A stretch of DNA of 60,603 nucleotides. Source: Promethearchaeota archaeon (GTDB lineage Archaea > Asgardarchaeota > Lokiarchaeia > Sigyniarchaeales > SOKP01). The notes under the pieces are model-generated. The model was not told the origin of the DNA, did not search any database, and saw only the letters and a list, made by a program, of their open reading frames with translations. Shown one piece after another: positions 19,085 through 58,365 of the stretch (position 1 is its first letter; each line of letters starts with the position of its first letter). The DNA is taken from NCBI GenBank assembly GCA_030615235.1, contig JAUWZR010000001.1, forward strand, positions 1 to 60,603, in the 5' to 3' direction. The position numbers and the translations under genes are program-made.

Positions 19085-19352
19085 AATACAATCCGCACAC
19101 CGATAAGATAATTAATCCTATTGTTGAAAATTAGGTTACATAATGTTAAATATCTAGGTTCAAAATAAAATGTTTTATTAATAGGTTAGTTGAATCGTAC
19201 TATTTGAATTTGAGGAGATTTAAAGTTTTTGATAAAAGTATGAAAATTAGCATGCCCTTCTAATAATTATAAACATTGTTTATTCTTTAATAATAAACAA
19301 TTTATCTTTATCTTTAAATAAATATAATAATTCTATTTAGGGAGAATCAGAC

Positions 19353-21131: not shown

Positions 21132-21166
21132 ATTCTTCTACATTTAATTGTATTGGGTGTTTTAAA

Positions 21167-43356: not shown

Positions 43357-44571
43357 GTGTATTTTGAACTGGATATAATTGAAGAAGTAGATGATATAGA
43401 AGGTAATGAAGACCAAAAAGAAAGGTTAGATGATTTTTTTAGAACATTGAATAATTATACAAAATTTGCAAATAAATTAAAAAAAACTAAATTATCACCT
43501 AATTTAACAATGCTCTTATATGGCCCTCCAGGCACAGGAAAAACATCATTAACAAGAGCTTATTCTCTAAAATATAATATTCCCATCTGTGTTGTAGAAT
43601 CTAATAGATTAGTCTCTTCTTTATTAGGTGATACAATTAAAAATATTCGAAGAGTGATTGAAATTGCTGCTGATATATCAAAAAAGAATGGTAATTTCAT
43701 TCTATTTTTTGATGAAATTGATGCGATTGGTTCCGAGAGATCTAATGTACATGAAGTCGGGGAAATTAAACGAGCAGTAATAGCTTTTTTGCAAACTATT
43801 GATTTAATTAGTTATAAAAGCCTCCCTTTAGCTATAATTGGGGCCACTAACCATCAGCAGCAACTAGATTCGGCAATATGGCGACGATTTACATTTCATC
43901 TTCAATTCGATTTTCCTAATTATGAAATTAGATCAAAAATAATAAAATCTTTTATAAAAAGAATAGAAGATGCTGGGATAGCAGTTAACGATTCTATTTC
44001 TGATGAAATCGATTTAGAATATAATAAAATTCGATTAATTATAGAAGGAATAGAAAATTCTGATGATAAATTAAATAATAATCTTATCATGAAGGAAGTT
44101 AAAAATCAGGAAATAAACGGATTAATTACATTAACTGATGGATATTCTGGATCTGATATTGAGAGAGGTGTAAGAGTTGCATTATTCAAAGCAATTGGCT
44201 CGTTTCCTACTGTTGAGAATATAGATTATGATATTCTTTATAAATCACTAAAGTTAGTTGGAGGAACAGCAGTTCATGTAAATCGACAGGAAATTCTCAG
44301 CCTCTCGGGTCCAAGTTTTGAAAAATTAGATGAATTTGATGATAAACTTGCTTTATCCGATTTTAATGTAGAATTTAAAAATTTTGAAGAATTGCTAGCA
44401 CAGTCACACAAATTAACACCAATATTAAAAGAAATTAATAATATCTTGGAACATCGGGAGGGTTTAAAAAATGATTATCATCAACGAATAAGTGAAGAAT
44501 TCGTAAACTTTATTACGACATTAAAAGATTTAAGCAAAATATTAAAAGATAAAAATATTGTAAAAGATTAA
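43357..44571 (+). CDS. Island gene 5: classic-clade AAA ATPase (Vps4/katanin/CDC48-module-like) with a C-terminal helical extension
   Basis: Walker A LLYGPPGTGKTSL, Walker B ILFFDEIDAIG, and a second region of homology GATNHQQQLDSAIWRRF. The frame is open upstream to an ATT at 43291, so the start is uncertain. Confidence 0.85.
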   Translation: MYFELDIIEEVDDIEGNEDQKERLDDFFRTLNNYTKFANKLKKTKLSPNLTMLLYGPPGTGKTSLTRAYSLKYNIPICVVESNRLVSSLLGDTIKNIRRVIEIAADISKKNGNFILFFDEIDAIGSERSNVHEVGEIKRAVIAFLQTIDLISYKSLPLAIIGATNHQQQLDSAIWRRFTFHLQFDFPNYEIRSKIIKSFIKRIEDAGIAVNDSISDEIDLEYNKIRLIIEGIENSDDKLNNNLIMKEVKNQEINGLITLTDGYSGSDIERGVRVALFKAIGSFPTVENIDYDILYKSLKLVGGTAVHVNRQEILSLSGPSFEKLDEFDDKLALSDFNVEFKNFEELLAQSHKLTPILKEINNILEHREGLKNDYHQRISEEFVNFITTLKDLSKILKDKNIVKD

Positions 44572-44591: not shown

Positions 44592-45044
44592 ATGTTTGAT
44601 TTAGATTATGATACAAAATACGTCTCTGTAGTTATTGAGTTTAAATATAACTCTAAGAGTAGTAAAAATATACCTAATGAAGTCAGAGAGGCTTTTATGG
44701 GGTTATATCCTCCTAAACACCCAAGTGGAAGAGGAAGTCCAATTTTAAGGGATATTAATAACTTATGCAATCCTAATGAAGAGGTTCTTTATCCGATTCA
44801 CTTTTCTTTAATTAAAAAGCCCGTTAAAATCGATTTGCCTGGAGTAAGAGAATATAAATTAAAAAATACAGCTGTGGGGGCAATAATTTTATATGAATAT
44901 ATAGGCCTTCTTGATGATTATAAAGATTGCTGCCTTAAAATAGCTGACTTTTTAGAGAAAAAAATTAAAAAACCTAAATGGTATTCAGAAATCACTTCAA
45001 TTAAACTAATTATAGGGTACGATTTAAAGGATGTCGCAAAATAA
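44592..45044 (+). CDS. Island gene 6: 150-aa protein, paralogue of 47206-47670
   Basis: Shares REAFMG, PPK.P.GRGSP, PIHFSLIKKP and NTAVGA.ILYEY.GL blocks with the 154-aa ORF on the other side of the Rad50-like gene. Confidence 0.6.
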   Translation: MFDLDYDTKYVSVVIEFKYNSKSSKNIPNEVREAFMGLYPPKHPSGRGSPILRDINNLCNPNEEVLYPIHFSLIKKPVKIDLPGVREYKLKNTAVGAIILYEYIGLLDDYKDCCLKIADFLEKKIKKPKWYSEITSIKLIIGYDLKDVAK

Positions 45045-45165
45045 AAAAATAATAGAAGAAATTGTTGATTATATTGAATCTTCAATTCGAGATGGTTTAG
45101 ATGAAGCAATTTTTATTAAAGAATTTCGGAATAAAATAGAAAAATATCTGAGTGAAAAGCAATAA
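45031..45165 (+). CDS. Possible 44-aa helical mini-protein translationally coupled to the Rad50-like gene
   Basis: The ATG at 45031 overlaps the end of the previous gene. Its stop forms TAATG with the 45165 start. Product is MSQNKKIIEEIVDYIESSIRDGLDEAIFIKEFRNKIEKYLSEKQ. Confidence 0.3.
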   Translation: MSQNKKIIEEIVDYIESSIRDGLDEAIFIKEFRNKIEKYLSEKQ

Positions 45166-47174
45166 TGAAAGCAGTCTTAAAATTAGTAAATATTGGGCAA
45201 AGAGAAGGGGAAGAAACTTGGGAATTTAACAGTGGAGTAGTAACAGAGATCAGAGGACGAACAGCTTCTGGTAAAAGCAGAATACTTAAATCTTGTGCAT
45301 TAGCTTTATCAATTCCAATAATCTCAGAAGAAATTAGAAATACTGCTATAAGTTTTGGAATTGCAAAAGCAGATAATGCAAAATTTTCACCCCTATTGAA
45401 TTCGAATAAAGAAAAAGCCATTATTGAACTTCATTATGATGAAGTTAAAAAACTTGTTGAAATAAATCGTGATGGTTCTGAAAAAATAAATATTCCTGGA
45501 AATCAAAAATTTATTTATTGTAGTATGCTAGTAGAAAATTCTAAAATACAAAATTATATCGATCATGGCCTATCTGATTTTTCATGGATAGTAACTGAAA
45601 TGTCCTTAGCAAAAGATTATGAATCAATAAAGGACATTGTTGGATCTTATACAGATTTAATTACAGCTAAAAAAGAAGAAATTCAGATAAAGGAGAATAA
45701 TAAAAAAAAGTTTGAGGGAGAATTTAAAAAAAAAAAAAGTGACCTAGCAGAAGTAATTGAGAAAATAAGACTACTCGAAGTTAATATTGAACAGGAGCTA
45801 GAAAAAATTGAATCGAATACAGAATTGAAAAATGAACGTAAGAAAATTATTGATGAACTCAAAGATAGACAAAAAATTATTATGGATACTGAAAAGAAAT
45901 TCCTTAGTCTAAAGAAAACTGTTACTGATCTAGATAATAAGATAAACGAAAAAAACACACAAATTGAAGATGAAACGGAAAATTTGGATAAATTGGAACA
46001 GAAAAAAAAGAAATATATGAAAATAGATGTGAGAAAATTAAATAACGAAATTAATCAGCTACATGAAGAAAATACGATGAATCTTGAAAAACAAAAGTTA
46101 TTATTACCTGAGATTAGTATATTAGAAAACAGCAAAAAGAAGTACGAAGGTATTTTAAGAGAACTAGATAAGACAAAAGAAAAAAAGGTTCTCTGTTGGG
46201 TTTGTGGGGGAAAAGAAATAGAAAGAAATGATATTGAAAACGATTTAAAAAGCACAAGAGATAAATTAACTCCTAAACGCGAAAAATATAGAGATTTAGA
46301 CTCTCAGATCGAAGAAAATAAGAATAATATAGATGATAAACAGAAAGATAAGGCAAAAAATGCTAAACTTCCTGATGTAAAGAAAAAAGTTGCATTGTCA
46401 AGAAATAAATTGATAAAACTAGCAGAAGAAAATAGCATTAATGTAGAACAAAAAAATAAGGAAGATATGGATATAAAAAGGTTTACAACAATTATCGAGA
46501 GTCGGAAGAAAACCATTAATCAATTAATAGAAAAAAGAAATGAAATCGAAAAACAAATAATTGATGATTCTCAAATGAACAAAACGAGGGAAGAAACCAA
46601 AACACAAAATACGAATAAGGGTGCTATTGAAAACCAAATCTCAAATTTAGAATTAGCCATAGATGATTGTAAAAGTATAGAAATTTTTAAAAAAGAATTT
46701 GATCTTTTAAAAGCAAAAAAAATTGTTCAAGAATTTGATGACATCTTTGATAATATTAATTTTCATCTAGAATTGAATATAAAAAAACAACGAGAAGGAG
46801 CTGCACATAAGTTCAATGAAAATATTGAAAAAATAATTGAAGAACTTAAATTGCCTAAATTTGAAAAAATTTATCTAGATATTGAAGATAATAATAAATT
46901 AAAAATTATAAGAAAAGGTAACCCTGACCCTCAAGCAATTAACTCTCTGAGCGGGGGTGAGAGAGTAATTGTTTCATCATTACTACAAATATCTGCTAAA
47001 GAAACTTACAATCCTGAGATACCCTTTATTGTTGGTGATGATATTATTATAAAAATGGATGAAGATCGTAGAGAAATTTTCTATAACTATTTAAAGAATA
47101 TTGCTAAAGATAATGATTGGTTTGTGATATTAACCAGAGTTACTGATGAAGATTTGGTAAAAGTAGAAATTTAA
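45165..47174 (+). CDS. Island gene 7: Rad50/SbcC/DndD-like SMC-family ATPase with a central CxxC hook
   Basis: N-terminal P-loop GRTASGKS, about 450 aa of Lys/Glu-rich coiled coil with CWVCGG at its centre (46194-46211), C-terminal signature LSGGERVIVSSLL, and Walker B-like PFIVGDD. Confidence 0.8.
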   Translation: MKAVLKLVNIGQREGEETWEFNSGVVTEIRGRTASGKSRILKSCALALSIPIISEEIRNTAISFGIAKADNAKFSPLLNSNKEKAIIELHYDEVKKLVEINRDGSEKINIPGNQKFIYCSMLVENSKIQNYIDHGLSDFSWIVTEMSLAKDYESIKDIVGSYTDLITAKKEEIQIKENNKKKFEGEFKKKKSDLAEVIEKIRLLEVNIEQELEKIESNTELKNERKKIIDELKDRQKIIMDTEKKFLSLKKTVTDLDNKINEKNTQIEDETENLDKLEQKKKKYMKIDVRKLNNEINQLHEENTMNLEKQKLLLPEISILENSKKKYEGILRELDKTKEKKVLCWVCGGKEIERNDIENDLKSTRDKLTPKREKYRDLDSQIEENKNNIDDKQKDKAKNAKLPDVKKKVALSRNKLIKLAEENSINVEQKNKEDMDIKRFTTIIESRKKTINQLIEKRNEIEKQIIDDSQMNKTREETKTQNTNKGAIENQISNLELAIDDCKSIEIFKKEFDLLKAKKIVQEFDDIFDNINFHLELNIKKQREGAAHKFNENIEKIIEELKLPKFEKIYLDIEDNNKLKIIRKGNPDPQAINSLSGGERVIVSSLLQISAKETYNPEIPFIVGDDIIIKMDEDRREIFYNYLKNIAKDNDWFVILTRVTDEDLVKVEI

Positions 47175-47205: not shown

Positions 47206-47670
47206 ATGAATAGTGGAGATAGATATGTTTTAGTAATAGCTGAATTACAATATGATTCGAAAAAACCTAGATCAATAGTAAATGATATTAGAGAAGCTTT
47301 TATGGGAATTGTACCTCCTAAATATCCCGAAGGAAGAGGAAGTCCAAATATTTCGAAAAAAATTAGAGATATGTGTAAAATTGATAAAGATATTATTGAT
47401 CCTATTCATTTCTCTTTAATTAAAAAACCTGAAAAAATAGTCAATGCTGAAGGAAGGACCTACACAATAAGAAATACTGCCGTTGGTGCTATGATATTAT
47501 ATGAATATTTAGGTTTAGCTAAAGATTTGAGAAGATTCCTCAATATTTTTGATGAATACCTCAAAAGATTGATAGAAAGCAAAAAACCACAATTTTTCTC
47601 TTATATTACTAACTACGATATAATAATAGGTAATAAAATAAATGATATTTCAGTAACTGAAAACATATAA
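47206..47670 (+). CDS. Island gene 8: 154-aa protein, paralogue of 44592-45044
   Basis: Carries the same conserved blocks as gene 6. Confidence 0.6.
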   Translation: MNSGDRYVLVIAELQYDSKKPRSIVNDIREAFMGIVPPKYPEGRGSPNISKKIRDMCKIDKDIIDPIHFSLIKKPEKIVNAEGRTYTIRNTAVGAMILYEYLGLAKDLRRFLNIFDEYLKRLIESKKPQFFSYITNYDIIIGNKINDISVTENI

Positions 47671-47740: not shown

Positions 47741-48343
47741 ATGAAAATACCAGATTTTTCAGAAAAAGATTTTATTGGGATAAATGGAGTAGGAAGAGCA
47801 CAATTATATCATCCTCATTTTGATGTTTGGCAATCTTTTTTCAGAAATAGTTTTAGAATTGAGGGAAGCATAAGTAGTATAATTTTTTTGCCGTGTGCTG
47901 CTATTAAACCCTATTATAATTCTCCAATCCATCGAGTTTTCAATAAAACTATTGACAAATACAAAAATATTCAAAAATTTGTCATATCAAACGCGGGTTT
48001 AATACCCTATGAATTCTGTGATCGGTATCCATTCGAATCTTATGATTGGAATCCACTTTTTGAGACAGAAGAAATAAAAAATGAATATATGGAAGCTATA
48101 AGTACAAGAATATTTGACTTCTTTAAGAATAGAAAAATTAATATTAAAGTTAAATTCATTTCTTATTTAAGGAACGATTCAGAATCGCTGAACTCACTAA
48201 AAATTGCTTTCAAAAAATTAAAAATGAATTTGGAAATAATAAAAATAACTGGAAAACTTCATGAGACAGCAGATACTGACTTATTATTAACATTAGAAGA
48301 AAATTTAATACGATTAAATAAAAAGTTAAAATCATTTGAATAA
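47741..48343 (+). CDS. Island gene 9: DUF5591-like (archaeosine-synthase ArcS C-domain-like) protein
   Basis: IIFLPCAAIKPYYNSPIHRVF resembles the PC-x3-KPY-x-S-x-H block I associate with the ArcS/DUF5591 domain. It lies 8 nt upstream of a TGT-like gene. Motif-level call only. Confidence 0.45.
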   Translation: MKIPDFSEKDFIGINGVGRAQLYHPHFDVWQSFFRNSFRIEGSISSIIFLPCAAIKPYYNSPIHRVFNKTIDKYKNIQKFVISNAGLIPYEFCDRYPFESYDWNPLFETEEIKNEYMEAISTRIFDFFKNRKINIKVKFISYLRNDSESLNSLKIAFKKLKMNLEIIKITGKLHETADTDLLLTLEENLIRLNKKLKSFE

Positions 48344-48351
48344 GTATTTTT

Positions 48352-49404
48352 ATGGATTATTGGGCAGGAGAATTAGGAAATAATTTTATCGAAGGAATAC
48401 AACACGGCAATGTCATGGATAGTGTGTATAATTTTCTGAAATCAGAGGAGCCCAAAATAAAATATCCCTACGAAAATTTATTTTTAGACAATGGCGCCTT
48501 TTCAATATTTAAGAATAACTATAACAAGAAAAAGAATGAAGTACAAATAAATCTTAATAGCATCATCGATATCCAAGAAAAACTCAAACCAAAATTTACA
48601 ATTCCTTTCGATTATCCATTAGATCCCCAAATGAATATTAAAAATATGGAACAAAATTGGCAAAAAACAGTGAAAAATGTTGATTATTGGACTAGTTGTA
48701 CTAATCTTAATCTTGTTCCTGCGCTGCATGGATGGAACAAAACTTCTCTAAATAAAAATCTTCATTTATTACAAAAAAAAGATTTTGATTACATAGCTTT
48801 AGGAAGTGCCTTTATTCTAAAGGAGAAATTCAAAGGATTTTTTGGAGATCGCCAACCAAATAAAAACATTTATGAAGCATTTTTATACCTCAGTTCCCTA
48901 GGTAAAAATCTAGGTATTGATATTCATGTATTTGGACTTGGAGCTTCTCCATTGACTTATCATTTTGCTGCGTTCTGTGAAATCAAAAGTTCTGATTCTT
49001 CAGGATATAGGAGAAAAGCAGCATACGGAAAAATTATCTTACCTCAAACAGCAGAAAGATATGCCGGTAATGGAAGTGCTACTTTTGGATTAAAAACTAA
49101 AAATGGATTGACTTATAAGAAAATCTTTTCTAATGAAGAAAAGAAAAAATTAGCCGAGTGTGGGTGCCCTGAATGCCGAAAAATATCCAAACATGGATAC
49201 CGTCGATGGAAACATTTATGTTCCGATTGGAAAATTAGAGCAATTCATAATAAATGGGTAATGGAACAGGAAGAAAAGATTTCCCACGAGTTAATTCAAC
49301 AAGGTTGGGATTGTTATGAAGAATTTATTAATAAAATGATGGAGAAATCTCGCTTAAAATGGCTTTGGGCTTTTATAAGAAAAACAAAACAAAAATATTT
49401 TTAA
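48352..49404 (+). CDS. Island gene 10: small tRNA-guanine-transglycosylase-superfamily protein without a PUA domain (DpdA-like candidate)
   Basis: The TGT zinc site and following helix are CGCPEC-x21-AIHNKW (CxCxxC ... HN). FLDNGAFSIF resembles the catalytic DSGGFQ block. At 350 aa it lacks the N-terminal ArcTGT start motif and PUA. Confidence 0.65.
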   Translation: MDYWAGELGNNFIEGIQHGNVMDSVYNFLKSEEPKIKYPYENLFLDNGAFSIFKNNYNKKKNEVQINLNSIIDIQEKLKPKFTIPFDYPLDPQMNIKNMEQNWQKTVKNVDYWTSCTNLNLVPALHGWNKTSLNKNLHLLQKKDFDYIALGSAFILKEKFKGFFGDRQPNKNIYEAFLYLSSLGKNLGIDIHVFGLGASPLTYHFAAFCEIKSSDSSGYRRKAAYGKIILPQTAERYAGNGSATFGLKTKNGLTYKKIFSNEEKKKLAECGCPECRKISKHGYRRWKHLCSDWKIRAIHNKWVMEQEEKISHELIQQGWDCYEEFINKMMEKSRLKWLWAFIRKTKQKYF

Positions 49405-49539: not shown

Positions 49540-51879
49540 TTAATTTATAAAAGGAAATTTAATTTCTACAGGGTCATGTTTTCCCATGCTCGTAATATAA
49601 GCATGTCCTTGTGGAAGATGTTTCAGTCGTTCTATATCTTGCTTATTATTAAAGTATTCCTTCAAGTAGTTGCTTCCACTTCCTTGTGTCTGAAGGAATA
49701 TTTTGGTATTACACAGATCAATAATTTCTTTTTTCACATCCATGATACTCTGGGTCGCAAATGCTACTCCATAGTCTCTTTTCCTACCACGATGTACGAT
49801 TTCGTCTAAGAATTTAACAATGCGCTTTAAGTATTCCGAATCTGATTGTGATTTCGATTTGGGAAGGAGACGTTGGATTTCATCCAAATGTAAGAAAACT
49901 TTAAGTTTTTCTTTTCCTTTCAAAGCACGTTTATGAAGAATAGCTAATAAATATAACGCTACAATTCGTTGATGTGAATCTCTCAAAATGTACGAATTAA
50001 TTACTGTTATATTACCAGGGATTAACATGGATTCAAAATCTATTGGTTCTACTTCGGGCAAATCGAAGATTCTTAGAGAGATGGAATTCAACGCCCTTCT
50101 TATTGCGGACTTAGTTCCAGATGTTGCGCTATATATCTCATTTTCCATATAATAGAAAATAAATTTCTTTAGTTCTGGAAGTGTAAACTCCTTTCCCTTA
50201 TTTTCTTCAATAATATCATAAATTATTGTTTGCAAAGTATCGTGAGATATTGGTGTCAATTCGTGTAAGAAATAGGGTAAATCAACAGGATCAATCGCTT
50301 TTAAGGTAAGGCAAAAACCTTTATCTGTATCTATATTAATGAACCTAAATTTATTGATGTTAAGAGCATTAATTCTATGTAGCTTCATTAATTTCTCTGA
50401 TTGCTTGGTAGAAGGAATATTTGCTAAATTACCATATTCTCCTTCATTATCAAGTATAATTTGTGCTGGAGAATCTTTCTCTTGAGCAATTAAAAGTGAG
50501 AGTAATTTCAATGCTGATGTTTTCCCAGAACCTTGTTGCCCACTCATGAACACACTTTGATATAAAGTTCTTATTTTAAGCAAATATGGAACTCCTGTAT
50601 TTAACCCTTGTATGCTTGCAATTTCTATTCCATTTTGAGGAATTTTTTTAAATTCACAGAACTCGTTTTGCGTTGGTATTTTGATTTTTCCGCCTATTAT
50701 CGTTTGTGGGTTCAGTGCCTGATATCCTTCAGGTGTAAATTGCCCAACGGGAATCAATGTAATTTTATAGTTATATTCTTTATGACTTGAAGTTTCTCCA
50801 GGAAAATAATCTTCAGAGCATTCTATTTTTTTAACAATGCACATTATTCTCACTCCATCCTCCTCTTTTTCAACAATCACACAATATCCATCTCTTACGA
50901 GGTGTGCTTTATTAGGATATAAATATCCTTTCATCTGGTTATCACCGCCCATTACAAGCTCAAGAGGTTTTCCCTTTACAGTGTTAATGCTTCCTAAACA
51001 ATAATCATCATCTTCAGATATCCCGTTAGAATTATATTGATTCCACGGATCACTGGGTGGTGTGGTTGGTGCAGATGTATTATGTAATTCACTTATTTTG
51101 GCATGGCTCTCTTTAACATCATTATGATCTTCATCATTTTCAGAGGTAAACTCAAAAGTAATACCGTTAAAACCTTCAAATGCTGTATTCATAGCAAATT
51201 TTACTGCAGTTTCCCTTAAATCATCCGTAAATTTATAAGAGACAACTTTATTTGGAAAATATACTAACTGAACGACTCCGCATTTCTGATGCCTCGCTTT
51301 TTCAAAAATAATTCCATATAGGCAAGTTTGCATAAATTCTCTATGATTTTTTAAATTTAAATTGCTCATTTCATCATTTTTGTTTAATTCATACGATTTA
51401 AATTCTCTTATTATAAATTTCTCTGAATCTAGCTCAACCAAACAATCAACTCGAGCATTAATTTTCAAGCCACCAATTTTTCCAATCTCTTCAACTTCAA
51501 AAGAAGCTTCTCCACCAAAGAATTCAATTTCAATCTTTTTTGGTATAACAATAGCATAATTATTTTTAGATTGCATTTTCGCAACTCTGCGTATATCTTG
51601 ATGTAAAGAATTTAATAACACTTTAGTGTCCTCATGATATATCTCATAATCAGGATTCTTTTTGATATCTGCCAAGATATCAATCTTATACTTTGTCAAA
51701 TTCTGACTGAAAACTCTATAATTCATTTTGTTTCTTTTATTCCCCCCTTTGAAAATTCTTTTATAATATGTTGTGGATGCTTGATGTAAAACTCTTCCAC
51801 GTATTCCCCCATGCTCATATATTACCTTACCATAGACATTATCTAATAAACCACTTACAGATTTTTTACATTGATTCAT
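49540..51879 (-). CDS. PD-(D/E)xK (Cas4/RecB-like) nuclease domain fused to a HerA/FtsK-type (DUF87) ATPase
   Basis: The N-terminal part has RVDCLVELDSEKFIIREFKSY (D ... ExK) and MQTCLY (QxxxY). The C-terminal part has Walker A GQQGSGKTS, Walker B VFLHLDEIQRLLP, and FATQSIMDVKKEIIDLCNTKIFLQT, typical of HerA-like ATPases. Confidence 0.75.
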   Translation of the reverse strand: MNQCKKSVSGLLDNVYGKVIYEHGGIRGRVLHQASTTYYKRIFKGGNKRNKMNYRVFSQNLTKYKIDILADIKKNPDYEIYHEDTKVLLNSLHQDIRRVAKMQSKNNYAIVIPKKIEIEFFGGEASFEVEEIGKIGGLKINARVDCLVELDSEKFIIREFKSYELNKNDEMSNLNLKNHREFMQTCLYGIIFEKARHQKCGVVQLVYFPNKVVSYKFTDDLRETAVKFAMNTAFEGFNGITFEFTSENDEDHNDVKESHAKISELHNTSAPTTPPSDPWNQYNSNGISEDDDYCLGSINTVKGKPLELVMGGDNQMKGYLYPNKAHLVRDGYCVIVEKEEDGVRIMCIVKKIECSEDYFPGETSSHKEYNYKITLIPVGQFTPEGYQALNPQTIIGGKIKIPTQNEFCEFKKIPQNGIEIASIQGLNTGVPYLLKIRTLYQSVFMSGQQGSGKTSALKLLSLLIAQEKDSPAQIILDNEGEYGNLANIPSTKQSEKLMKLHRINALNINKFRFINIDTDKGFCLTLKAIDPVDLPYFLHELTPISHDTLQTIIYDIIEENKGKEFTLPELKKFIFYYMENEIYSATSGTKSAIRRALNSISLRIFDLPEVEPIDFESMLIPGNITVINSYILRDSHQRIVALYLLAILHKRALKGKEKLKVFLHLDEIQRLLPKSKSQSDSEYLKRIVKFLDEIVHRGRKRDYGVAFATQSIMDVKKEIIDLCNTKIFLQTQGSGSNYLKEYFNNKQDIERLKHLPQGHAYITSMGKHDPVEIKFPFIN

Positions 51880-51885
51880 TTTTTA

Positions 51886-52236
51886 TCACATCTCATTTTG
51901 TTCAAACAATTCAAAATATCCTTCAGAGTTTCTGATTAAATCTAGCACATCTAAAGTTGTTTTATTAAGGAATAACGAATCATTTTTTTCTGCTAAAAAC
52001 TTCGAAAATATCTCTAATGAATTTTCAAATTGGGAATAATTTTCAGAAATAAGATTTCTTAATAAAATCTGGCGCTCTAATAGAGAATATTGAGTTAATA
52101 TTTCCTTTATAAAAACATCAACATCGTCGAAATAAATTACATTACCAAATTTTAAATTAGCTAAAATATTTTTAATTTTCTCATAAATATGGCAATTTTC
52201 TTCTTTAAATTTTGAGAAAAAAGTATTATTGTTCAA
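51886..52236 (-). CDS. Hypothetical 116-aa protein, co-operonic with the nuclease-HerA gene
   Basis: Lies 6 nt upstream of the 779-aa gene on the same strand. No recognised motif. Confidence 0.45.
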   Translation of the reverse strand: MNNNTFFSKFKEENCHIYEKIKNILANLKFGNVIYFDDVDVFIKEILTQYSLLERQILLRNLISENYSQFENSLEIFSKFLAEKNDSLFLNKTTLDVLDLIRNSEGYFELFEQNEM

Positions 52237-52397: not shown

Positions 52398-53921
52398 ATG
52401 TCAGATTTAACAACCCAAAACAAAATTTTAACCGTTTTAAGTAAAGCGTATCTCCCGTTAACAGCTAGGGAAATTTCTCAAATTGCAGAACTAAACATCA
52501 ATACTACTAGAACTATTTTACCACAAATGGTTAATAGAGGAGAAATTGAGCCAATAAAAATGGGTCCTGGGACTAAAAACTTATATATGTATAAAAAAAT
52601 CGAGGATGAAGGAACTGTAGAAATCCTTGTTATAGGAAAATGGATGAAGAAGAATTTAGAAAGTTATGAAAAAAAAGAAATAGAGGAACCTATTGAAGAA
52701 CAATTAGAATTAAAAAATCATTTAAATTTCAATTTATTTCAGTGTGTTGGCCTCATAAATTTCTATGATCTCCGAAAAATTTGTGGAATTCATAGATATA
52801 CATCCCCAGATAAAATAAATGAAATAGGAATGGGTGTGCAAAGACAAAGGCATGACAAATGGGTCGAGGAATTGAAAGAGGGATTAAAATCTTCCAAAGC
52901 TGAAATGTGGTCTACGGCAATAATATATTTTGATAAAGAAAAAATAGAATACACTAAACTTCGGGATTATAATGGTCAAGAAATAGGAGTTATAATCATT
53001 AATTATGATGGTCATGTATATGATGCTGAAAAACCAGGTTGGATTTTAGACGGACAGCAGAGAATGTGGGCTTTAGAGAATATCGCAATTGCTTCAGAAG
53101 ATCCAGATTCTCTGAAATTGACAGGACCAGTAACTATTGCTATTGGGGAATTTTACTACAAAGATATAGGAACTAAGCTTAATTTTATCCGAAGAACTTT
53201 TTCACATGCAAATAAAACTCAAAATCTTCCTAAGAATTTCAGGAAGGATTTAATAGGCACATTAGATGATTACAGTCAAGAAACAATGACCAAGAAAGAT
53301 AAAAAAGACGCTTTAATATCCTCAATAATTAGGTACTTAAATACAGATTATGATAGTCCTTTTAAAGAAATAATTGATATGCAAAATCGAGGTTTACCAA
53401 GAATTCAAGGAGAATTGATATCATGGGGGGCTATGAACTATATAATCCAAGAAATTTTAGAATATGAAGCGTTTAATAAGGAAGATTTACCTATTCCTGA
53501 ATCAGATAATCGATATAAATTTAATTTAGAATTAATTAAAGATTACTTCAATGCGATAAAATATATTTATCCATCTGAATGGGGGCAAACAGTTCAAAAT
53601 TCAAGGCTTCGGAGTAGGCTAGTGCTTTCTAGCTTTTCTATGCTTATTGGAAAAATACTGCATATTTCAATTGCGTTATCATCTGATCGCGAAACAAGAT
53701 TTAAGGAGATTGTTAGAGAAAATCTAAAAATTTCAGAAGATGAAAGAGTAAGTTTTGATGTAAACAGCCCATTGATACTAAACTTAAAAAACAATCAAGC
53801 TGATATAAAAACTTTAACCGAAAATTTAATAAAGATTTATGCTCAAAATTCCCAATATAATCCTGAAGAATTGTTAATTGTAAAAATTTATGAAGAATGG
53901 AGAGAATTACTGGAATATTGA
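52398..53921 (+). CDS. ParB/DndB/DUF262-superfamily protein (DGQ[HQ]R motif) with an N-terminal winged helix
   Basis: GVQRQRHDKWVEEL followed by WILDGQQRMWAL matches the QR ... DGQ(H/Q)R arrangement of DndB/DpdB-like DGQHR and DUF262 domains. The N-terminus LPLTAREISQIAELNINTTRTIL is HTH-like. Confidence 0.65.
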   Translation: MSDLTTQNKILTVLSKAYLPLTAREISQIAELNINTTRTILPQMVNRGEIEPIKMGPGTKNLYMYKKIEDEGTVEILVIGKWMKKNLESYEKKEIEEPIEEQLELKNHLNFNLFQCVGLINFYDLRKICGIHRYTSPDKINEIGMGVQRQRHDKWVEELKEGLKSSKAEMWSTAIIYFDKEKIEYTKLRDYNGQEIGVIIINYDGHVYDAEKPGWILDGQQRMWALENIAIASEDPDSLKLTGPVTIAIGEFYYKDIGTKLNFIRRTFSHANKTQNLPKNFRKDLIGTLDDYSQETMTKKDKKDALISSIIRYLNTDYDSPFKEIIDMQNRGLPRIQGELISWGAMNYIIQEILEYEAFNKEDLPIPESDNRYKFNLELIKDYFNAIKYIYPSEWGQTVQNSRLRSRLVLSSFSMLIGKILHISIALSSDRETRFKEIVRENLKISEDERVSFDVNSPLILNLKNNQADIKTLTENLIKIYAQNSQYNPEELLIVKIYEEWRELLEY

Positions 53922-54005
53922 TATATCTTAATTCCAATTGCTAATAAAATTTATAAAAATTACTATATTACCTGGATTAATATATTCGAAATCCTTTTAA
54001 TATTC

Positions 54006-55379
54006 ATGAAAAAGGATTTTGAATTGAAAGAAAAGACAGCTATAAATTTTCTTAAAAAGTACAATAAAAATGCTTATGTCTGTTTTTCAGGGGGTAAAGA
54101 TAGTCTAGTCGCCCTTGATTTAGCCATTAAAGGCGGAATTGATAATGTTGTATTTTGCGATACTACTATGGAATTTCAAGAAACTCTTGATTACATTAGA
54201 AGAGTAGAAGAATTTTATGATATAAGGGTGGAATCAGTGACTGCCCCTGTGCCATTTTTTGAACTTGTATATAAAATTGGGGTCCCATCGAGAAGATTGA
54301 GATGGTGTTGCAAGGTTTATAAATTTTCTCCACTCGCGGTATTCGCAAGAGAGAACAAGGTTAAATCTTATATAACAGGCTTAAGAAGTGAAGAGAATGT
54401 TAGACGTAAGCATTATAGCAAAAATGATGAGAATCATTTAATAGATTCAAAACAAATAAATCCTATTCTTGATTGGTCAAGTCAAGATATTTGGGATTAT
54501 ATTATGCGAAATAATCTACCTGTTAATCCACTGTACAATTTAGGATTTAAAAGAATAGGGTGTTGGCCATGCCCATTTAAATCTAAGGTAGATTGGAGTT
54601 TGATTAAGAAGTTCTTCCCAGATAAATCAAAATTACTAGATAAAACCTTGAGATCTATCTTAAAGAATTGCGAAGGTGTGGGAATTAAGAATTTAGATGA
54701 TTTCATAAAAAATTTTAAATGGACTGCTTATAGTAGGCCGCAAAACTCTGAATTACAAGGGAAAATAGAATTTATTGATGGTACATCTTTAATTCATTTA
54801 GAAAATACGAGCGATCTCAAAAAAGTAGAAAAAATTATTCCAATATTATCAAAAGAATATGAGGTAATTAGAAATTCGATTATGATAAAAAGCAAACTCC
54901 GCAAGCAAAGTCTCAAAATCCTCGTAGAAAAAGCTCTAAATTGTGTAGGTTGTGGTACATGCGTTGCTTTTTGTAAGTCTTTAAGAATAGAAAGAAACCA
55001 TTTAGTTGTTGATAGTCAAAATTGTACTTCATGTTTAAGATGTATTAAAACTAGTACAATGAGGGGAGCTTGTATAATGAGAAATTTTTCTCCATATCGT
55101 ATTGAAATTGGTACTTGCCAAAATTTTTCAGTAGAAAATGAAATTCCTTCATTAAATAGTCGTGTTGGCTTGATTAGAACAAGAGCTAAACTGGAAGATA
55201 TAATAGAAAAATTAGAAAAACATGCTGAAATTAAAAAATTCACTCAATATGTCTCCATAAAAAACGGAAAATTGTCAGCAACAGCATATAAGTCAAGAGG
55301 GTATGTGGAAATTAAAATTTACCCTAACAATAATGACTTAGAAATTACAATGAATTATTTCAGAGGGATAATCACTTAA
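54006..55379 (+). CDS. PAPS-reductase-family PP-loop ATP pyrophosphatase (DndC-like) with a C-terminal 2x[4Fe-4S] ferredoxin-like domain
   Basis: PP-loop VCFSGGKDSLVALDL, RWCCKVYKFSPL and GCWPCP blocks of the PAPS reductase/DndC family. CVGCGTCVAFC and CTSCLRC Cys clusters follow. Confidence 0.75.
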   Translation: MKKDFELKEKTAINFLKKYNKNAYVCFSGGKDSLVALDLAIKGGIDNVVFCDTTMEFQETLDYIRRVEEFYDIRVESVTAPVPFFELVYKIGVPSRRLRWCCKVYKFSPLAVFARENKVKSYITGLRSEENVRRKHYSKNDENHLIDSKQINPILDWSSQDIWDYIMRNNLPVNPLYNLGFKRIGCWPCPFKSKVDWSLIKKFFPDKSKLLDKTLRSILKNCEGVGIKNLDDFIKNFKWTAYSRPQNSELQGKIEFIDGTSLIHLENTSDLKKVEKIIPILSKEYEVIRNSIMIKSKLRKQSLKILVEKALNCVGCGTCVAFCKSLRIERNHLVVDSQNCTSCLRCIKTSTMRGACIMRNFSPYRIEIGTCQNFSVENEIPSLNSRVGLIRTRAKLEDIIEKLEKHAEIKKFTQYVSIKNGKLSATAYKSRGYVEIKIYPNNNDLEITMNYFRGIIT

Positions 55380-55449: not shown

Positions 55450-56343
55450 ATGACAAAATATGATTTATTCAACTTGGAAAAAATCCAAGAATTAACTAGC
55501 CCGATTGAAGAATTTGAAGGAAAAATAGTCAATTTTGGGATTAACTTTGAAAGATTTCGCAAAACTAGAAATAAAACTCTCCATAAGATAAAAGATCAAT
55601 TATTTATAGAAGAAATTGAACAAATCTTTCTTGAATTTGACACACTCTATAAGCAATTATCTAAACAATCAATTAATATTATTTTAAAATTTCTCTTTTT
55701 TCAAGAAAAACTTACGAAAGAACATGCAATTTTATTCAAACAAAAATTAAAAGATTCTAATTTAAGATTAAACGAATACGGATTACATTTAATTGAAACT
55801 AAAAAAATCCGTAGAATTCATGATAACACCTTAGTGATCTTTGCCCCATCTTTAGATCTATGGTTAGAAGTATTAAACTCATTAAAGAGAAATTCTCTAT
55901 ATTTATCTTTTATAGAGAAGGCTAAGATTATTTTAAAAACTAAGGAATATATACCTATTGAAGAAATTTCTACTCAAAATGAACAAACAATAGAAAAAGA
56001 ATCTAAATCTGAACTTAATAAATATGAAGAATATCTTAAATATACGAATAAGGAATTTCAAAAAAGGAGACGGAGAGAAAAAAGAACTAATTTAGTAAAA
56101 CTTCAAGAAAAACCAGCTATCCAAATTGAGGTAACTAAGGAGGTAACAGAGAAAATTGAAGAATATAAATCTAAAATGAAAACTGACTTCAATAGGAAAT
56201 ATTTTATTCAAAAAGATGAAGAAAAAGATCCAGTATCGTTAATAAAAGATTTAAAAAAAAAAAAAAAGGAAGAATACAAAATACATTTAGAGAAAATACA
56301 GAAAAAGAAATCAGGTGAAAATTCAGATACTAGAACGAATTAA
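55450..56343 (+). CDS. Hypothetical protein with a Lys/Glu-rich C-terminal half
   Basis: 297-aa ORF that overlaps the next gene by 29 nt. Confidence 0.45.
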   Translation: MTKYDLFNLEKIQELTSPIEEFEGKIVNFGINFERFRKTRNKTLHKIKDQLFIEEIEQIFLEFDTLYKQLSKQSINIILKFLFFQEKLTKEHAILFKQKLKDSNLRLNEYGLHLIETKKIRRIHDNTLVIFAPSLDLWLEVLNSLKRNSLYLSFIEKAKIILKTKEYIPIEEISTQNEQTIEKESKSELNKYEEYLKYTNKEFQKRRRREKRTNLVKLQEKPAIQIEVTKEVTEKIEEYKSKMKTDFNRKYFIQKDEEKDPVSLIKDLKKKKKEEYKIHLEKIQKKKSGENSDTRTN

Positions 56344-57847
56344 TATAGCAGATAATGAAATTGATATAAAAAATCAATTTACACTTATACTAGGTAAATT
56401 TAAAAAAGAACAAATAAATCAGTTTCAAGAATTTAATACATATGATTTATTTGAGGATTTTAATGTTATATCTTTTGAGACAATTTTAACTATATTTAAA
56501 AATGAAATACATAATGTAAACTTTCTAAGATTTGTTGAAATTCTTGATCCTTTTCTTAACACTACCAAATTTTTTATTCAATTAATAGGAAAATACAGTG
56601 AATTAACTCAATTTTTTGATCAATCTTTACGACTTAGGATATTTGCAAGTGAAAATGAGAATTTAGAAAAACTCTTAGAAATTCGGAAGAAAATAGATGA
56701 AAAAAACACACCAAAAGTAAAAGAAATTTTAGATGAAATCAGAGATTTAAATAATTTGATTATCGAAGAAATAAAAACATTAAATTATTTAGAAGAGGAT
56801 TTTATTAACCAAAAAATGAAAATTGATCGATTTAACAAATCAATAAACAATCTTCAGATAAAATTAAAGAATTTAGACACACAAAAAAAAAAGGCGCTTA
56901 AAAAAATTAGTGTAATAACAGGAGAAAATGAAGATTCAAGAGATATGGATGAGGAATTAACAGATTCTCAAAGGATTTTAAAATTTCAACAACAAGTTAG
57001 AGATTTTAATTATGAAATGAAGAAAATTAATGAGAATATTCATAAAGAGAGTACCGAATTTCGAGAGTTTAAGCTCAATTTTTTGATAATCGAAGAAGAT
57101 TATAAACTTCTCAAAAGCACAATAAATGGTTATAATAACAAATTAAATGAACTTAAAAAAGAATTATCTAAAATTATTGATACAGAATTAGGTGATTTTG
57201 AAATGTCCGATCTCCTCAAATCACATAATCAAATTATTAAACATTTCGAAGAAAATGACCTTAAAATAAAAAATATTCAAAAACATAAATTTTTTGACAA
57301 AAACCAATCCGATGCTCTATCAACTATATATAAAGAATTAGTTAATATCAAGTCTAATCTAACTAAAAATAAAATTAATTTTACTAAAGATGATATAGAA
57401 AAATCTGTAGATTTTTATCAAAATATTGAATCTAAAATTATAATATTAGAAGAAATAATCAATAAATTTTTAATGCAAATCTATTTGAAATATTCCCTCG
57501 AAATTACAATAAATGATAATAAGAATTTATTTATTAAACAAAAATTCTTCCAAATAAGAAAAAAAACCACTCTAAACTTCAATGAATTGACAACTCCAGA
57601 AAAAATTTTTTTCTTAATTGTCTTAGATATTTCATTGAGAATTTTATTTAATAAAAAAATAATTTATTCGAATATGTTTTTACCAGTAATCTATAATAAA
57701 CAAGGTTCAATATTTCGAACTTTAAAAAAAATTATTCCAGTGTTCGAAAGGGAAACTGAACTTCAAGACATTAGTTTGATCTTTATTTTATCTAATATAG
57801 AAATGAAAGAAAGAATAACGAATTTAGATGTTATCAAAATCAAATAA
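56315..57847 (+). CDS. SMC/Rad50-like coiled-coil protein with degenerate ATPase motifs
   Basis: The N-terminus KIQILERINIADNEIDIKNQFTLILGKFKKEQ has the strand pattern of an SMC head, but GKFKKE replaces GxxGxGKS/T. A long coiled coil follows. The C-terminal LTTPEKIFFLIVLDISL sits in place of LSGGE. Confidence 0.45.
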   Translation: MKIQILERINIADNEIDIKNQFTLILGKFKKEQINQFQEFNTYDLFEDFNVISFETILTIFKNEIHNVNFLRFVEILDPFLNTTKFFIQLIGKYSELTQFFDQSLRLRIFASENENLEKLLEIRKKIDEKNTPKVKEILDEIRDLNNLIIEEIKTLNYLEEDFINQKMKIDRFNKSINNLQIKLKNLDTQKKKALKKISVITGENEDSRDMDEELTDSQRILKFQQQVRDFNYEMKKINENIHKESTEFREFKLNFLIIEEDYKLLKSTINGYNNKLNELKKELSKIIDTELGDFEMSDLLKSHNQIIKHFEENDLKIKNIQKHKFFDKNQSDALSTIYKELVNIKSNLTKNKINFTKDDIEKSVDFYQNIESKIIILEEIINKFLMQIYLKYSLEITINDNKNLFIKQKFFQIRKKTTLNFNELTTPEKIFFLIVLDISLRILFNKKIIYSNMFLPVIYNKQGSIFRTLKKIIPVFERETELQDISLIFILSNIEMKERITNLDVIKIK

Positions 57848-57882
57848 AGAAGTGAAGATATCTGAGTAAAAATCAAAAAGAA

Positions 57883-58365
57883 ATGATAAGAGAAATTGCA
57901 AAGCTAATTTTAACAAATAAAAAGAAAATGGTAAAAGAAGAAGATTTAATAAGACTCTATGATAAATCTACTTCGGATTTTGACGAAACTTTTAAAGATC
58001 TATATGAACAATTTAATAAACTAGGTTTTGAACTTATAAAGTCAGAATTTCAAGGGAATAATTATTATGTTTTAACATCAGAAGGTAAGGATGATAATAT
58101 AACTCCAAGCCAATATGGTAGTTTAGCACTTATTGCTGCATTATCTAAGGAAGTAAATGAGAACATAAAAATTGAGGATCTAAAAGAAATATTCAAAGAT
58201 CAATGGAATTTAGATATTAAATTTCTTATAGATAATGATTTTTTAAGGAAAATTGACGATTTGGGAATAGTTAAAATAACTCCAATCGGAAAAGCTATAT
58301 TAAAAGAAATTCTGCCTGATTTATCACTAGACACACTATTAGATATATTTGAAGTTGAAGAATAA
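57883..58365 (+). CDS. Hypothetical 160-aa protein, last gene of the island (possible winged-helix)
   Basis: Operonic with the preceding genes. It has a weak resemblance to small wHTH partners of SMC-like proteins, which is not enough for a call. Confidence 0.35.
   Translation: MIREIAKLILTNKKKMVKEEDLIRLYDKSTSDFDETFKDLYEQFNKLGFELIKSEFQGNNYYVLTSEGKDDNITPSQYGSLALIAALSKEVNENIKIEDLKEIFKDQWNLDIKFLIDNDFLRKIDDLGIVKITPIGKAILKEILPDLSLDTLLDIFEVEE

Follow-up and report, generated by a model that had tools for sequence, protein, structure and literature searches.

The window analyzed here comprises 60,603 nucleotides of contig JAUWZR010000001.1 from a Promethearchaeota archaeon. It is an archaeal chromosome fragment of low GC content (∼30%), and the nearest homologues of its proteins are Lokiarchaeial, for example in Promethearchaeota Loki_b32. 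Two adjacent genes on the forward strand are the main subject: the first (52398–53921) encodes a protein with a DGQQR motif and an N-terminal winged helix-turn-helix (wHTH), and the second (54006–55379) a PAPS-reductase-family enzyme carrying a ferredoxin domain (PAPS-Fer4). Both open reading frames (ORFs) lie where an initial annotation had placed them, and every motif that it quoted is present in the translations (GVQRQRHDKWVEEL and WILDGQQRMWAL in the DGQQR protein; SGGKDS, RWCCKVYKFSPL, GCWPCP, CVGCGTCVAFC, and CTSCLRC in PAPS-Fer4). The close spacing of the genes is also as described, with a gap of 84 rather than 85 nt. The annotation had likened them to the dndB-dndC pair of DNA phosphorothioation operons. 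That they are linked, in a DNA-modification context, is borne out by 18 loci; the Dnd identity is not (20–22 bits for DndC), nor is the gene content that of dndB-dndC. The neighbors that had been overlooked encode a DpdA-like tRNA-guanine transglycosylase (TGT), an ArcS2-like DUF5591 protein, a nuclease-HerA fusion, and an SMC-like ATPase with small partners. The cluster contains the following genes:

43357–44571, forward strand: AAA+ ATPase of the classic AAA family, a frequent core partner (PF00004, E = 8.7e-28)
44592–45044, forward strand: first copy of a small core protein of 150 residues (s150), 46% identical to the second copy
45031–45165, forward strand: microprotein of 44–45 residues (m45), overlapping the s150 stop and abutting the SMC-like start
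45165–47174, forward strand: Rad50/SMC-like ABC ATPase of the ASRP family, 669 residues, with a central zinc hook (CWVC)
47206–47670, forward strand: second copy of s150, 154 residues, with a predicted ferredoxin-like alpha+beta fold (AlphaFold2, mean pLDDT 84)
47741–48343, forward strand: ArcS2-like DUF5591 protein, the archaeosine-synthase core domain (PF17884, 1.8e-11)
48352–49404, forward strand: DpdA-like TGT-family protein, 350 residues, no PUA domain (PF01702, 35.4 bits; gathering threshold 26.3)
49540–51879, reverse strand: PD-(D/E)XK nuclease-HerA/FtsK-type ATPase fusion, a candidate effector, 779 residues (PADLOC HerA, 4.5e-17)
51886–52236, reverse strand: 116-residue partner (s116), encoded in the divergent operon just before the nuclease-HerA gene, no family match
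52398–53921, forward strand: wHTH and DGQQR NTPase-like protein (ParB/Srx fold, DpdB/DndB superfamily), 507 residues, ATG start
54006–55379, forward strand: PAPS-Fer4, of the PP-loop ATP-pyrophosphatase-type PAPS-reductase family, 457 residues, ATG start

Related loci were obtained from contig look-ups (13), from a scan of species-representative genomes (80), and from a scan of metagenomes (24). Relatives of PAPS-Fer4 fall into two well-separated tiers with bimodal bit scores. Proteins of the close tier score at least 231 bits and have 353–488 residues; those of the distant, ∼600-residue tier score 111–156 bits, have 570–830 residues with an N-terminal extension, occur in most archaeal groups without conserved neighbors, and probably represent a different, possibly housekeeping, orthologous group. 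Gene content was compared in ∼45 loci using family hidden Markov models (HMMs) built in this analysis; of the 80 species-representative loci, the nine of the close tier (L010–L018) were compared. Five arrangements can be distinguished, with L094 and related loci bridging types D and E:

Type A (window, L001, L092, L096, L098–L100): p431, AAA+, s150, m45, SMC-like, s150, ArcS2, TGT, divergent HerA, divergent s116, DGQQR, PAPS-Fer4, p297, p510, p160
Type B (L006, L093, L104): divergent HerA, divergent s116, DGQQR, s150, m45, SMC-like, PglZ, PAPS-Fer4
Type C (L007–L009, L106, L109): PAPS-Fer4, DGQQR, s150, m45, SMC-like, PglZ, then SNF2/NOV_C or HerA
Type D (L112, L113, L115): PglZ, PAPS-Fer4 ... 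DGQQR, AAA+, s150, m45, SMC-like, e267, DGQQR
Type E (Methanohalobium, Bathyarchaeia, Nitrososphaerota, Archaeoglobaceae, and one Actinomycetota metagenome-assembled genome [MAG]): e286, AAA+, e253, SMC-like, e267, PAPS-Fer4

The DGQQR and PAPS-Fer4 genes share a cluster in the 18 loci at DGQQR identities from ∼27% to 96%. They may be adjacent in either order, or PAPS-Fer4 may follow PglZ. PAPS-Fer4 is missing from DGQQR loci only at contig ends, the sole exception with long flanks being L107, and the s150-m45-SMC-like trio stands alongside DGQQR in nearly all loci long enough to show it. The persistence of the pair across this divergence and these gene orders indicates that the DGQQR-PAPS-Fer4 link is a real, recurrent association within a larger system. 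In L002/L003, which represent one Loki lineage, the core and PAPS-Fer4 are kept and DGQQR, HerA, and TGT/ArcS2 are all absent; DGQQR, though frequent, is a dispensable component, like DndB in Dnd systems. After PAPS-Fer4 these two loci (L002, 7326–10499; L003, 10439–13612) carry an s150 paralogue, an HhH-GPD glycosylase, a C5 DNA methyltransferase (Dcm), and an Smr protein, and this slot is one in which two kinds of DNA base-modification gene sets are swapped. The cluster as a whole is rare and mainly Asgard archaeal.

The description of PAPS-Fer4 as a PAPS reductase with a ferredoxin domain is well founded, and the matches are not due to chance (PF01507, E = 4.7e-40; Fer4 at residues 309–348). 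The AlphaFold2 model (mean pLDDT 88) consists of a PAPS reductase domain with a CC..CxxC cluster site, an alpha+beta domain, a 2×[4Fe-4S] ferredoxin, and a C-terminal alpha+beta domain. SGGKDS and both ferredoxin cysteine motifs are retained in all 28 distinct close relatives. Across 14 aligned homologues, the PP loop SGGKDS, C101-C102, and C186-x2-C189 are invariant, along with eight more cysteines in two CxxCxxC-type motifs (residues 313–356). A Foldseek search with the model returned Fe-S APS reductases at the top, followed by the [4Fe-4S] sulfurtransferase TtuA and LarE. Upon residue alignment to the APS reductases of M. tuberculosis and P. aeruginosa (7lhr/2goy), the CC and CxxC of PAPS-Fer4 fall on theirs, which are Fe-S cluster ligands in those enzymes, while SGGKDS lies opposite their degenerate loop (SNMADA or SGAED). 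The catalytic C-terminal cysteine of the ECGLH motif, searched for as ECG[LIV]H, was found in none of the 28 close relatives. The relation of PAPS-Fer4 to DndC, SspD, and BrxP was judged from the following profile scores, of which all those from NCBIfam fall below their equivalog cut-offs:

Archaeal PRK13795.1-2: 181 bits (model NF010367, 180.7 against a cut-off of 456)
BrxP (PADLOC): 173 bits (172.9, profile positions 133–365, reaching position 515 in relatives)
phrog_424: 169 bits
CysH: 111 bits (PRK02090, 110.8 against 154; the APS-reductase models TIGR02055, 102 against 235, and TIGR00434, 86.7 against 165)
SspD: 72 bits
DndC: 20–22 bits (TIGR03183, 21.5 against 290.4; PADLOC DndC, 20–22 bits over residues 93–172 only)

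Motifs and profiles place PAPS-Fer4 among the ATP-pyrophosphatase-type PP-loop enzymes of the PAPS-reductase family and predict three [4Fe-4S] clusters for it; it is neither DndC nor an assimilatory reductase. The caution of the initial annotation that PAPS-reductase-ferredoxin fusions also occur in archaeal sulfur metabolism was apt. The window enzyme lacks the ∼220-residue N-terminal extension of these PRK13795-type proteins (∼570–830 residues). Linkage to sulfate-assimilation genes, named beforehand as refuting the phosphorothioation reading, is not seen: no such gene occurs in the window or beside any close-tier locus, and the actual neighbors of the close relatives are genes for the Rad50-like ATPase, AAA+, DGQQR, PglZ, and HerA. 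The BrxP score was considered as evidence of phosphorothioate chemistry and dropped, because unlinked archaeal paralogues of ∼600 residues match the model equally well; the score reflects a shared architecture and is not diagnostic.

The DGQQR protein belongs, as first proposed, to the DGQ(H/Q)R ParB-like proteins (TIGR03187, 83.2 bits against a cut-off of 58.85). Its N-terminal wHTH has modest support from a MarR-type phrog match (E = 5e-4, residues 5–87) and from a Penicillinase_R wHTH Pfam match on the homologue P0145. The proposed likeness to DndB is doubtful: the Pfam DndB model is matched at threshold only (29.3 bits against 29.1), and no DndB model of NCBIfam or PADLOC is listed at E 0.01. 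The alternative that had been raised, DpdB, is much better matched, over nearly the full profile (PADLOC DpdB, 7e-29, positions 25–366 of 370; NF041060, 2e-23, 82.8 bits against an equivalog cut-off of 300). The DGQQR reading of the motif is present in 30 of 31 family proteins, and no variation in DGQQRMWA or QR is seen across 13 sequences. S. Montevideo DpdB and SspE share this form of the motif and require it for NTPase activity, and in bacteria the activity of DpdA depends on the DGQQR-motif ATPase of DpdB (PMC10164549). The family is tiny. A search of 5.8 billion proteins gave 28 clusters, and 21 of 1.84 billion representative proteins match at E 1e-30 or better; beyond these lie ordinary DGQHR proteins of ∼370 residues. 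In a search for solved DndB or DpdB structures, the sequence matched no PDB entry. A viral origin was considered and rejected, as no viral contig with a relative of the protein was found in IMG/VR, and homology with euryarchaeal e286 or Loki p431 was not supported (hhalign probability <1%).

The core that recurs around these two genes includes ATPases. The Rad50/SMC-like protein matches the NCBIfam ASRP model NF045487 over almost its entire length (8.3e-54, 183 bits against a cut-off of 300, profile positions 2–591 of 593) and gives weak PDB sequence matches to Rad50 heads. All 25 homologues have the central CxxC, and 23 of the 25 have Walker A. Wherever the flanks of a close-tier locus are long enough, the ATPase gene is found linked to PAPS-Fer4, with two exceptions: L005, which has an unrelated SMC_N ATPase instead, and the plasmid locus L090, which has none. 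The latter (Methanobacterium congolense plasmid II, NZ_LT607757.1, 9920–11065) holds a lone close-tier homologue of PAPS-Fer4 with 37% identity that adjoins Hjc and CARDB-domain genes on an 18-kb plasmid, with no ATPase partners. Loki, type D, and euryarchaeal/bathyarchaeal loci have homologues of the AAA+ ATPase at the equivalent position.

Two small proteins accompany the ATPases. The m45 gene lies below usual ORF-calling thresholds; its HMM family is present in >20 loci, one of Archaeoglobaceae included, and invariably just upstream of the SMC-like gene. In most DGQQR loci whose contigs reach that far, s150 is directly upstream of the m45/SMC-like genes. The exceptions are L107/L108, from which the entire set is missing, and L002/L003, in which s150 follows the SMC-like gene. 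The s150 gene is duplicated. In the window the copies flank the Rad50-like ATPase gene on both sides, and in L002/L003 there are also two copies, here flanking PAPS-Fer4. No Pfam or PDB sequence match was found for s150, and the best Foldseek hits of copy 2 are to uS10, PII, and IS200-TnpA-like folds (E ∼2e-3). The euryarchaeal e253 family is, from its hhalign match, probably homologous to s150 (probability 69%, E = 4e-5).

Between the core and the DGQQR gene lies the TGT/ArcS2 cassette. The DUF5591 protein contains the ArcS motif PC-x3-KPY-x2-S-x2-H, as defined in PMC10516641, in the form PCAAIKPYYNSPIH, and is 33% identical to the ArcS2 protein STSV2_16 (E = 4e-17). The TGT-like protein has both Asp motifs (LDNGAF and SDSSGY) and the CxCxxC..H zinc site intact; it matches phrog_887 (9.5e-12) and the DpdA protein STSV2_15 (E = 4e-15), and in the phage collection nothing is matched except DpdA genes, from Sulfolobus viruses STSV1/2 and from cyanophages. 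It scores 15 bits on the DpdA model NF041059 (cut-off 200). The tRNA-enzyme models are likewise far from satisfied (TGT-like protein, 24 against 350 for ArcTGT, TIGR00432; DUF5591 protein, 36.7 against 440 for ArcS, NF040592), and both proteins are short and single domain, not a full-length ArcTGT (C1, C2, PUA) or ArcS (∼575 residues). The cassette occurs in only six loci (window, L001, L092, L099, L100, and L115) among 33 DGQQR loci, 11 PAPS-Fer4 loci without DGQQR, and the other DGQQR loci on contigs that end before PAPS-Fer4. In L115, of the distant type D, it is inserted elsewhere, between the PAPS-Fer4 and effector genes. The TGT and ArcS2 proteins of the window and L115 are 71% and 60% identical, whereas the corresponding values for DGQQR, PAPS-Fer4, and the SMC-like ATPase are 27%, 38%, and 32%. 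The far closer relation of the cassette, together with its differing insertion, indicates that two variants of the system have either acquired it or exchanged it, and its presence in both argues for a functional connection rather than coincidence. This recruitment parallels the dependence of DpdA on DpdB in bacteria (PMC10164549).

Effector-type genes vary between the loci. The N-terminal 260 residues of the nuclease-HerA fusion match PF12705 (25.2 bits; gathering threshold 22), as do two distant orthologues above threshold, and the residues D145, E/D159-x-K161, and Q184xxxY188 are invariant. In types A and B its gene and the DGQQR gene are divergently oriented, and s116 co-occurs with it in the window, L001, L092, L093, L096–L100, and L102–L105. 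In sister loci of types B, C, and D, a PglZ protein of ∼950 residues (Pfam, 29.5 bits; gathering threshold 25) is encoded in the same operon (L006–L009, L093, L104–L106, L109, L112, L113, and L115). A mutual exclusion of PglZ and TGT was considered and dropped, as L115 carries both. Other defense-type neighbors in relatives are SNF2/NOV_C, Mrr, and an N6-methyltransferase with PLD, and nuclease-HerA occurs in several variants. Between TGT and DGQQR, L115 (6617–9706) encodes a 620-residue protein with Walker-like motifs recognized by eye and a 400-residue protein with a sub-threshold NurA match (E = 3.4e-3), which may be a HerA-NurA-type effector pair.

Among the known systems, BREX type 4 has in BrxP an enzyme whose layout PAPS-Fer4 follows: a PAPS reductase, an alpha+beta domain, and a Cys-rich 4Fe-4S domain. 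The middle alpha+beta domain is recognized in the model. PglZ is a hallmark of BREX, and BrxP is usually fused to DUF4007. The domain order has been described for BrxP and some SspD proteins (PMC12839542). Also as in BREX type 4, PglZ is found in the sister-locus operons and a P-loop NTPase accompanies the PAPS-family enzyme. However, the cluster contains no BrxC/DUF6079, BrxL, or DUF4007 (PADLOC, Pfam, and NCBIfam); instead, a Rad50-like zinc-hook ABC ATPase, two small partners, and wHTH-DGQQR are present, and the window lacks PglZ. The cluster follows the logic of Dnd systems: alongside a PP-loop Fe-S enzyme of the PAPS family it has an ABC ATPase with a coiled coil, a small partner, and a DGQ(H/Q)R ParB-like protein that can be dispensed with. 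Its module also joins with further modification enzymes (Dcm in L002/L003, TGT in the window), as reported for the DndDE cores, which can recruit methylases among others (PMC10853773). The cluster differs in that its components fail the Dnd profiles, apart from the threshold match to Pfam DndB, with no DndD or DndE model of NCBIfam or PADLOC listed at E 0.01 for the cluster proteins, in a small partner that is not 2×ribbon-helix-helix, in the lack of DndA, and in a DGQQR rather than DGQHR motif. An Ssp system is a poor fit: the SspD score is far below those of BrxP and PRK13795, and there are no SspB or SspC matches.

The likeness to Dpd systems lies in the DGQQR protein, with its motif of the DpdB form and its full-length DpdB profile matches, which stay below the equivalog cut-off of NF041060. 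The TGT-family and DUF5591 proteins are homologous to the DpdA/ArcS2 pair of STSV2, and in Vibrio phage nt-1, DpdA2 and ArcS2 make dG+ in DNA (PMC10516641). In contrast to Dpd, there is no DpdC (DUF328) or DpdD-K (Pfam, NCBIfam, and PADLOC), the DGQQR protein has an extra N-terminal wHTH and usually no TGT nearby, and the locus is cellular, not viral. BRC and HerA/FtsK capture systems have in common with the cluster PglZ (in relatives), a HerA/FtsK ATPase, TGT in one locus, and HerA coupled to a nuclease. BRC systems, however, have DUF6079, a STAND NTPase, DUF4007, and GNAT and lack DpdB homologues and a PAPS reductase (PMC12839542; PMC10853773), whereas here DGQQR, PAPS-Fer4, and the Rad50-like ATPase are found instead. 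The ATPase resembles the ASRP family (including ClsN and Sph) in its model match and central zinc hook and differs in scoring below the curated cut-off. This family includes the coalescin ClsN; no gene-neighborhood link to a PAPS enzyme was reported for it in a study that did not cover neighborhoods, and its ancestral role was left open (PMC9389158). The M. evestigatum ASRP named in that paper may be one that adjoins a PAPS-Fer4 gene. The combination of Rad50-like ATPase, DGQQR, and PAPS-Fer4 is in neither the 2024 Dnd nor the 2026 BREX comparative survey, and full-text literature searches returned no description of the cluster. It is apparently undescribed and is best read as a PAPS-reductase-based system for DNA marking and defense, extended by a Dpd-like module.

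The DNA products established by experiment for PP-loop enzymes of the PAPS family are all phosphorothioates, and each such enzyme requires a P-loop NTPase partner (DndC with DndD, SspD with SspC, BrxP with BrxC); BrxP and BrxC suffice for phosphorothioate synthesis (PMC11185695). Given this precedent and the presence of PglZ in many relatives, it is therefore proposed, with modest confidence and as somewhat the likelier account, that DGQQR and PAPS-Fer4 are subunits of a conserved archaeal self-marking defense system resembling BREX type 4 and Dnd, to which a 7-deazaguanine module has been added. The recurrent core consists of PAPS-Fer4, the Rad50-like zinc-hook ATPase, s150, m45, and usually the AAA+ ATPase. 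Gene content, conserved linkage, intact motifs, and family scores are direct observations, whereas we infer the DNA substrate, the sulfur chemistry, the defense role, and the sharing of the DGQQR protein between modules. By analogy with the three enzyme-NTPase pairs above, the ATPase complex and the wHTH-DGQQR NTPase would load onto and scan DNA, positioning PAPS-Fer4, which would activate its target with ATP through the intact SGGKDS loop and insert sulfur by means of its three predicted clusters. The product would most likely be a phosphorothioate, and we put the chance that the mark is specifically this one at a little short of even. Cluster-bound sulfide or a reduced persulfide may serve as the sulfur source. 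Delivery from a cluster would explain why no desulfurase of the DndA/SspA type is encoded. DNA lacking the mark would be the target of the linked effector, in the window the PD-(D/E)XK-HerA fusion with its 116-residue partner and in sister loci PglZ, with or without SNF2/NOV_C or the HerA/NurA-like pair. The DpdA-like/ArcS2 cassette probably adds a further mark in the form of a 7-deazaguanine, for example preQ0 or archaeosine, with the resident DGQQR NTPase perhaps taking the role of DpdB.

Several observations weigh against this proposal. The closest solved structures of PAPS-Fer4 are the assimilatory APS/PAPS reductases, whose NCBIfam score exceeds those of SspD and DndC; its profile and model hit APS/PAPS reductases, TtuA, and LarE only, and no solved DndC, SspD, or BrxP was matched. 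On the BrxP model, archaeal paralogues of ∼600 residues without conserved neighbors score equally (155–190 bits). For the SMC-like ATPase, NCBIfam and PADLOC give ASRP and LmuB only and no DndD or BrxC model. An identification of s150 with DndE was dropped: there is no Pfam or PDB match, the fold is ferredoxin-like, and Foldseek returned no ribbon-helix-helix or DndE structure. The absence of DGQQR from L002/L003 means that the pair is not obligatory. No match to the PglZ HMM built from sister loci occurs in the window, and neither BrxL nor SspB/DUF4007 was found there; preQ0 biosynthesis genes are likewise missing among the window genes. The initial annotation was correct that the window ORFs include no cysteine desulfurase (DndA/SspA), nor do the genes with Pfam annotation in the 13 loci from contig look-ups include one. 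A dedicated cysteine desulfurase is often dispensable, as housekeeping IscS or SufS can substitute. The modification chemistry itself we infer purely by analogy.

The chromosomal setting bears on the first of the alternatives. The first 28 kb of the window are occupied by housekeeping genes (RpoB, Cbf5, PolD DP2/DP1, Orc1/Cdc6, RtcB, and a Ras-family GTPase). The genes for the large and small PolD subunits lie beside that for Orc1/Cdc6 (15650–23172), so that ∼20–35 kb separate the cluster from what is probably a region of replication origin. Its position in Loki genomes is a fixed, syntenic, origin-proximal site, where it is flanked by the following genes:

41956–43251, forward strand: p431, just upstream of the AAA+ gene, no Pfam or NCBIfam match
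55450–58365, forward strand: p297, p510 (coiled coil), and p160, which follow PAPS-Fer4 only in Loki type A loci and L002/L003

Of these, p431 is restricted to the Loki type A form, with the same position in L002/L003, L092, and L099. The order p297-p510-p160 is kept in L001, L002/3, L092, L096, L099, and L100, and the membership of these three proteins in the system is uncertain. An MksE (condensin kite) match of p160 is below threshold (E = 3e-3), and the Rad50-like ATPase might have kleisin/kite-like partners in these three proteins. An equivalence of e267 with p297 was considered, for which hhalign gave no support.

The fixed site and the flanking genes could indicate a housekeeping role in chromosome biology, which also speaks against the self-marking proposal. 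The cluster would then encode a chromosome-organization or repair complex, in which an ASRP/ClsN-like ATPase works with kleisin/kite-like partners and PAPS-Fer4 acts on another substrate, such as tRNA or a cofactor. The membership of the ATPase in the family of ClsN, the syntenic chromosomal position of the Loki locus near Orc1/PolD, the weak MksE-like match, and the absence of the DGQQR protein from viral contigs are all consistent with such a role. The distribution, however, is patchy, with only L010–L018 in the close tier among the 80 best-matching species-representative loci, one bacterial MAG included. PglZ, nuclease-HerA, SNF2/NOV_C, Mrr, methyltransferase, and PLD genes are associated with the cluster, and the accessory cassettes are highly variable, as is typical of defense islands. 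A housekeeping complex is considered unlikely.

A Dpd-type system would account for the DGQQR protein as a DpdB partner of the TGT, with PAPS-Fer4 tailoring the 7-deazaguanine or its precursor, in the manner of QueC on CDG/preQ0, rather than the backbone. DpdB profiles are indeed the best match of the DGQQR protein, which has the motif of S. Montevideo DpdB, and a TGT with intact catalytic motifs is present together with ArcS2 in a cassette recruited twice into DGQQR systems; PAPS-Fer4 also has a weak QueC match (residues 152–178). Against this stand the absence of DpdC and DpdD-K and the DpdB score of 83 bits where NF041060 demands 300. The restriction of TGT/ArcS2 to six loci, moreover, indicates that neither DGQQR nor PAPS-Fer4 depends on TGT. 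This explanation is judged quite unlikely.

It is also conceivable that unrelated systems lie side by side in a defense island and that the adjacency of DGQQR and PAPS-Fer4 has no functional meaning. Defense islands do accumulate unrelated systems, and each gene can be found without the other (PAPS-Fer4 without DGQQR in L002/L003; DGQQR without PAPS-Fer4 or the SMC-like ATPase in L107). The pair nevertheless stays together over 27%–96% DGQQR identity and at least four gene orders, and in several loci DGQQR and PAPS-Fer4 overlap or nearly abut the same core genes, which makes chance neighborhood improbable. A canonical dndBCDE operon, with the DGQ protein as the DndB regulator and the PP-loop enzyme as DndC, can point to the order of a ParB-like and a PAPS-reductase-family gene, to the Pfam DndB score just over its cut-off, and to the SMC-like ATPase nearby; it is very improbable and largely refuted by the profile scores (DndC, 20–22 bits against 290; no DndB, DndD, or DndE model at E 0.01), as well as by the DGQQR motif, the ferredoxin-like rather than 2×ribbon-helix-helix small partner, and the lack of DndA. 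An APS/PAPS reductase-ferredoxin fusion of assimilatory or archaeal sulfur metabolism is hardly credible: APS reductases with the same CC..CxxC are the closest solved structures and the CysH and APS_reductase models give 87–111 bits, but these scores are below cut-offs, the ECGLH cysteine is absent in 28 of 28 relatives, SGGKDS replaces SGAED/SNMADA, and sulfate-assimilation neighbors occur in none of roughly 35 related loci.

In its strongest form, the self-marking proposal would have one wHTH-DGQQR NTPase on a Rad50-like zinc-hook scaffold serve two chemically unrelated DNA modifiers, a desulfurase-independent, DNA-thiolating PAPS-Fer4 and a DpdA/ArcS2 pair writing an archaeosine-type 7-deazaguanine mark, within a single Asgard cell. 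This form is doubtful and is put forward tentatively. If it were true, the shared-NTPase locus would link the worlds of Dnd/BREX-4 (DndB-DndC) and Dpd (DpdB-DpdA) and would be the first cellular archaeal 7-deazaguanine DNA modification system. The self-marking proposal as such, if right, would add a fourth architecture beside Dnd, Ssp, and BREX-4, in which a Rad50/ASRP-type ATPase replaces DndD or BrxC, and the repeated capture of DpdA/ArcS2 would make the long-noted DndB/DpdB homology testable as one ParB-like NTPase licensing different DNA-modifying enzymes. A first functional context would be gained for part of the ASRP family and likewise for a branch of the widespread, uncharacterized archaeal PAPS-reductase-ferredoxin proteins. 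Three predicted Fe-S clusters with no desulfurase would point to a sulfide-based DNA thiolation fit for anaerobes. Asgard archaea are the closest prokaryotic relatives of eukaryotes, and phosphorothioate and/or deazaguanine marks in such uncultured lineages would affect sequencing, cloning, and virus-host inference.

Some features of the window outside the cluster may be mentioned. Two radical-SAM genes (29937–31088 and 33040–34080) were considered as RaSEA/QueE partners of ArcS2 and rejected, as they give generic radical-SAM matches only. The Ras-family small GTPase (12188–13204, reverse strand; PF00071, 5e-51) has an N-terminal extension of ∼150 residues; eukaryote-like GTPases of this family are typical of Asgard archaea. 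A 145-residue protein (34929–35366, forward strand) has a coiled-coil-like N terminus followed by a long Pro/Gly low-complexity stretch, PPPSGGPPGGPPSPPGGPPGGPPPPGG. At the contig end (1–4111), the GC skew is extreme, +0.62 and then +0.39, and the ORFs have no family matches. One of the ORFs in this region (1794–2900) contains HVVLTFDP and HFHLLYDF, which by eye resemble the motifs of rolling-circle Rep (HUH) proteins, and the region may be a small integrated element.

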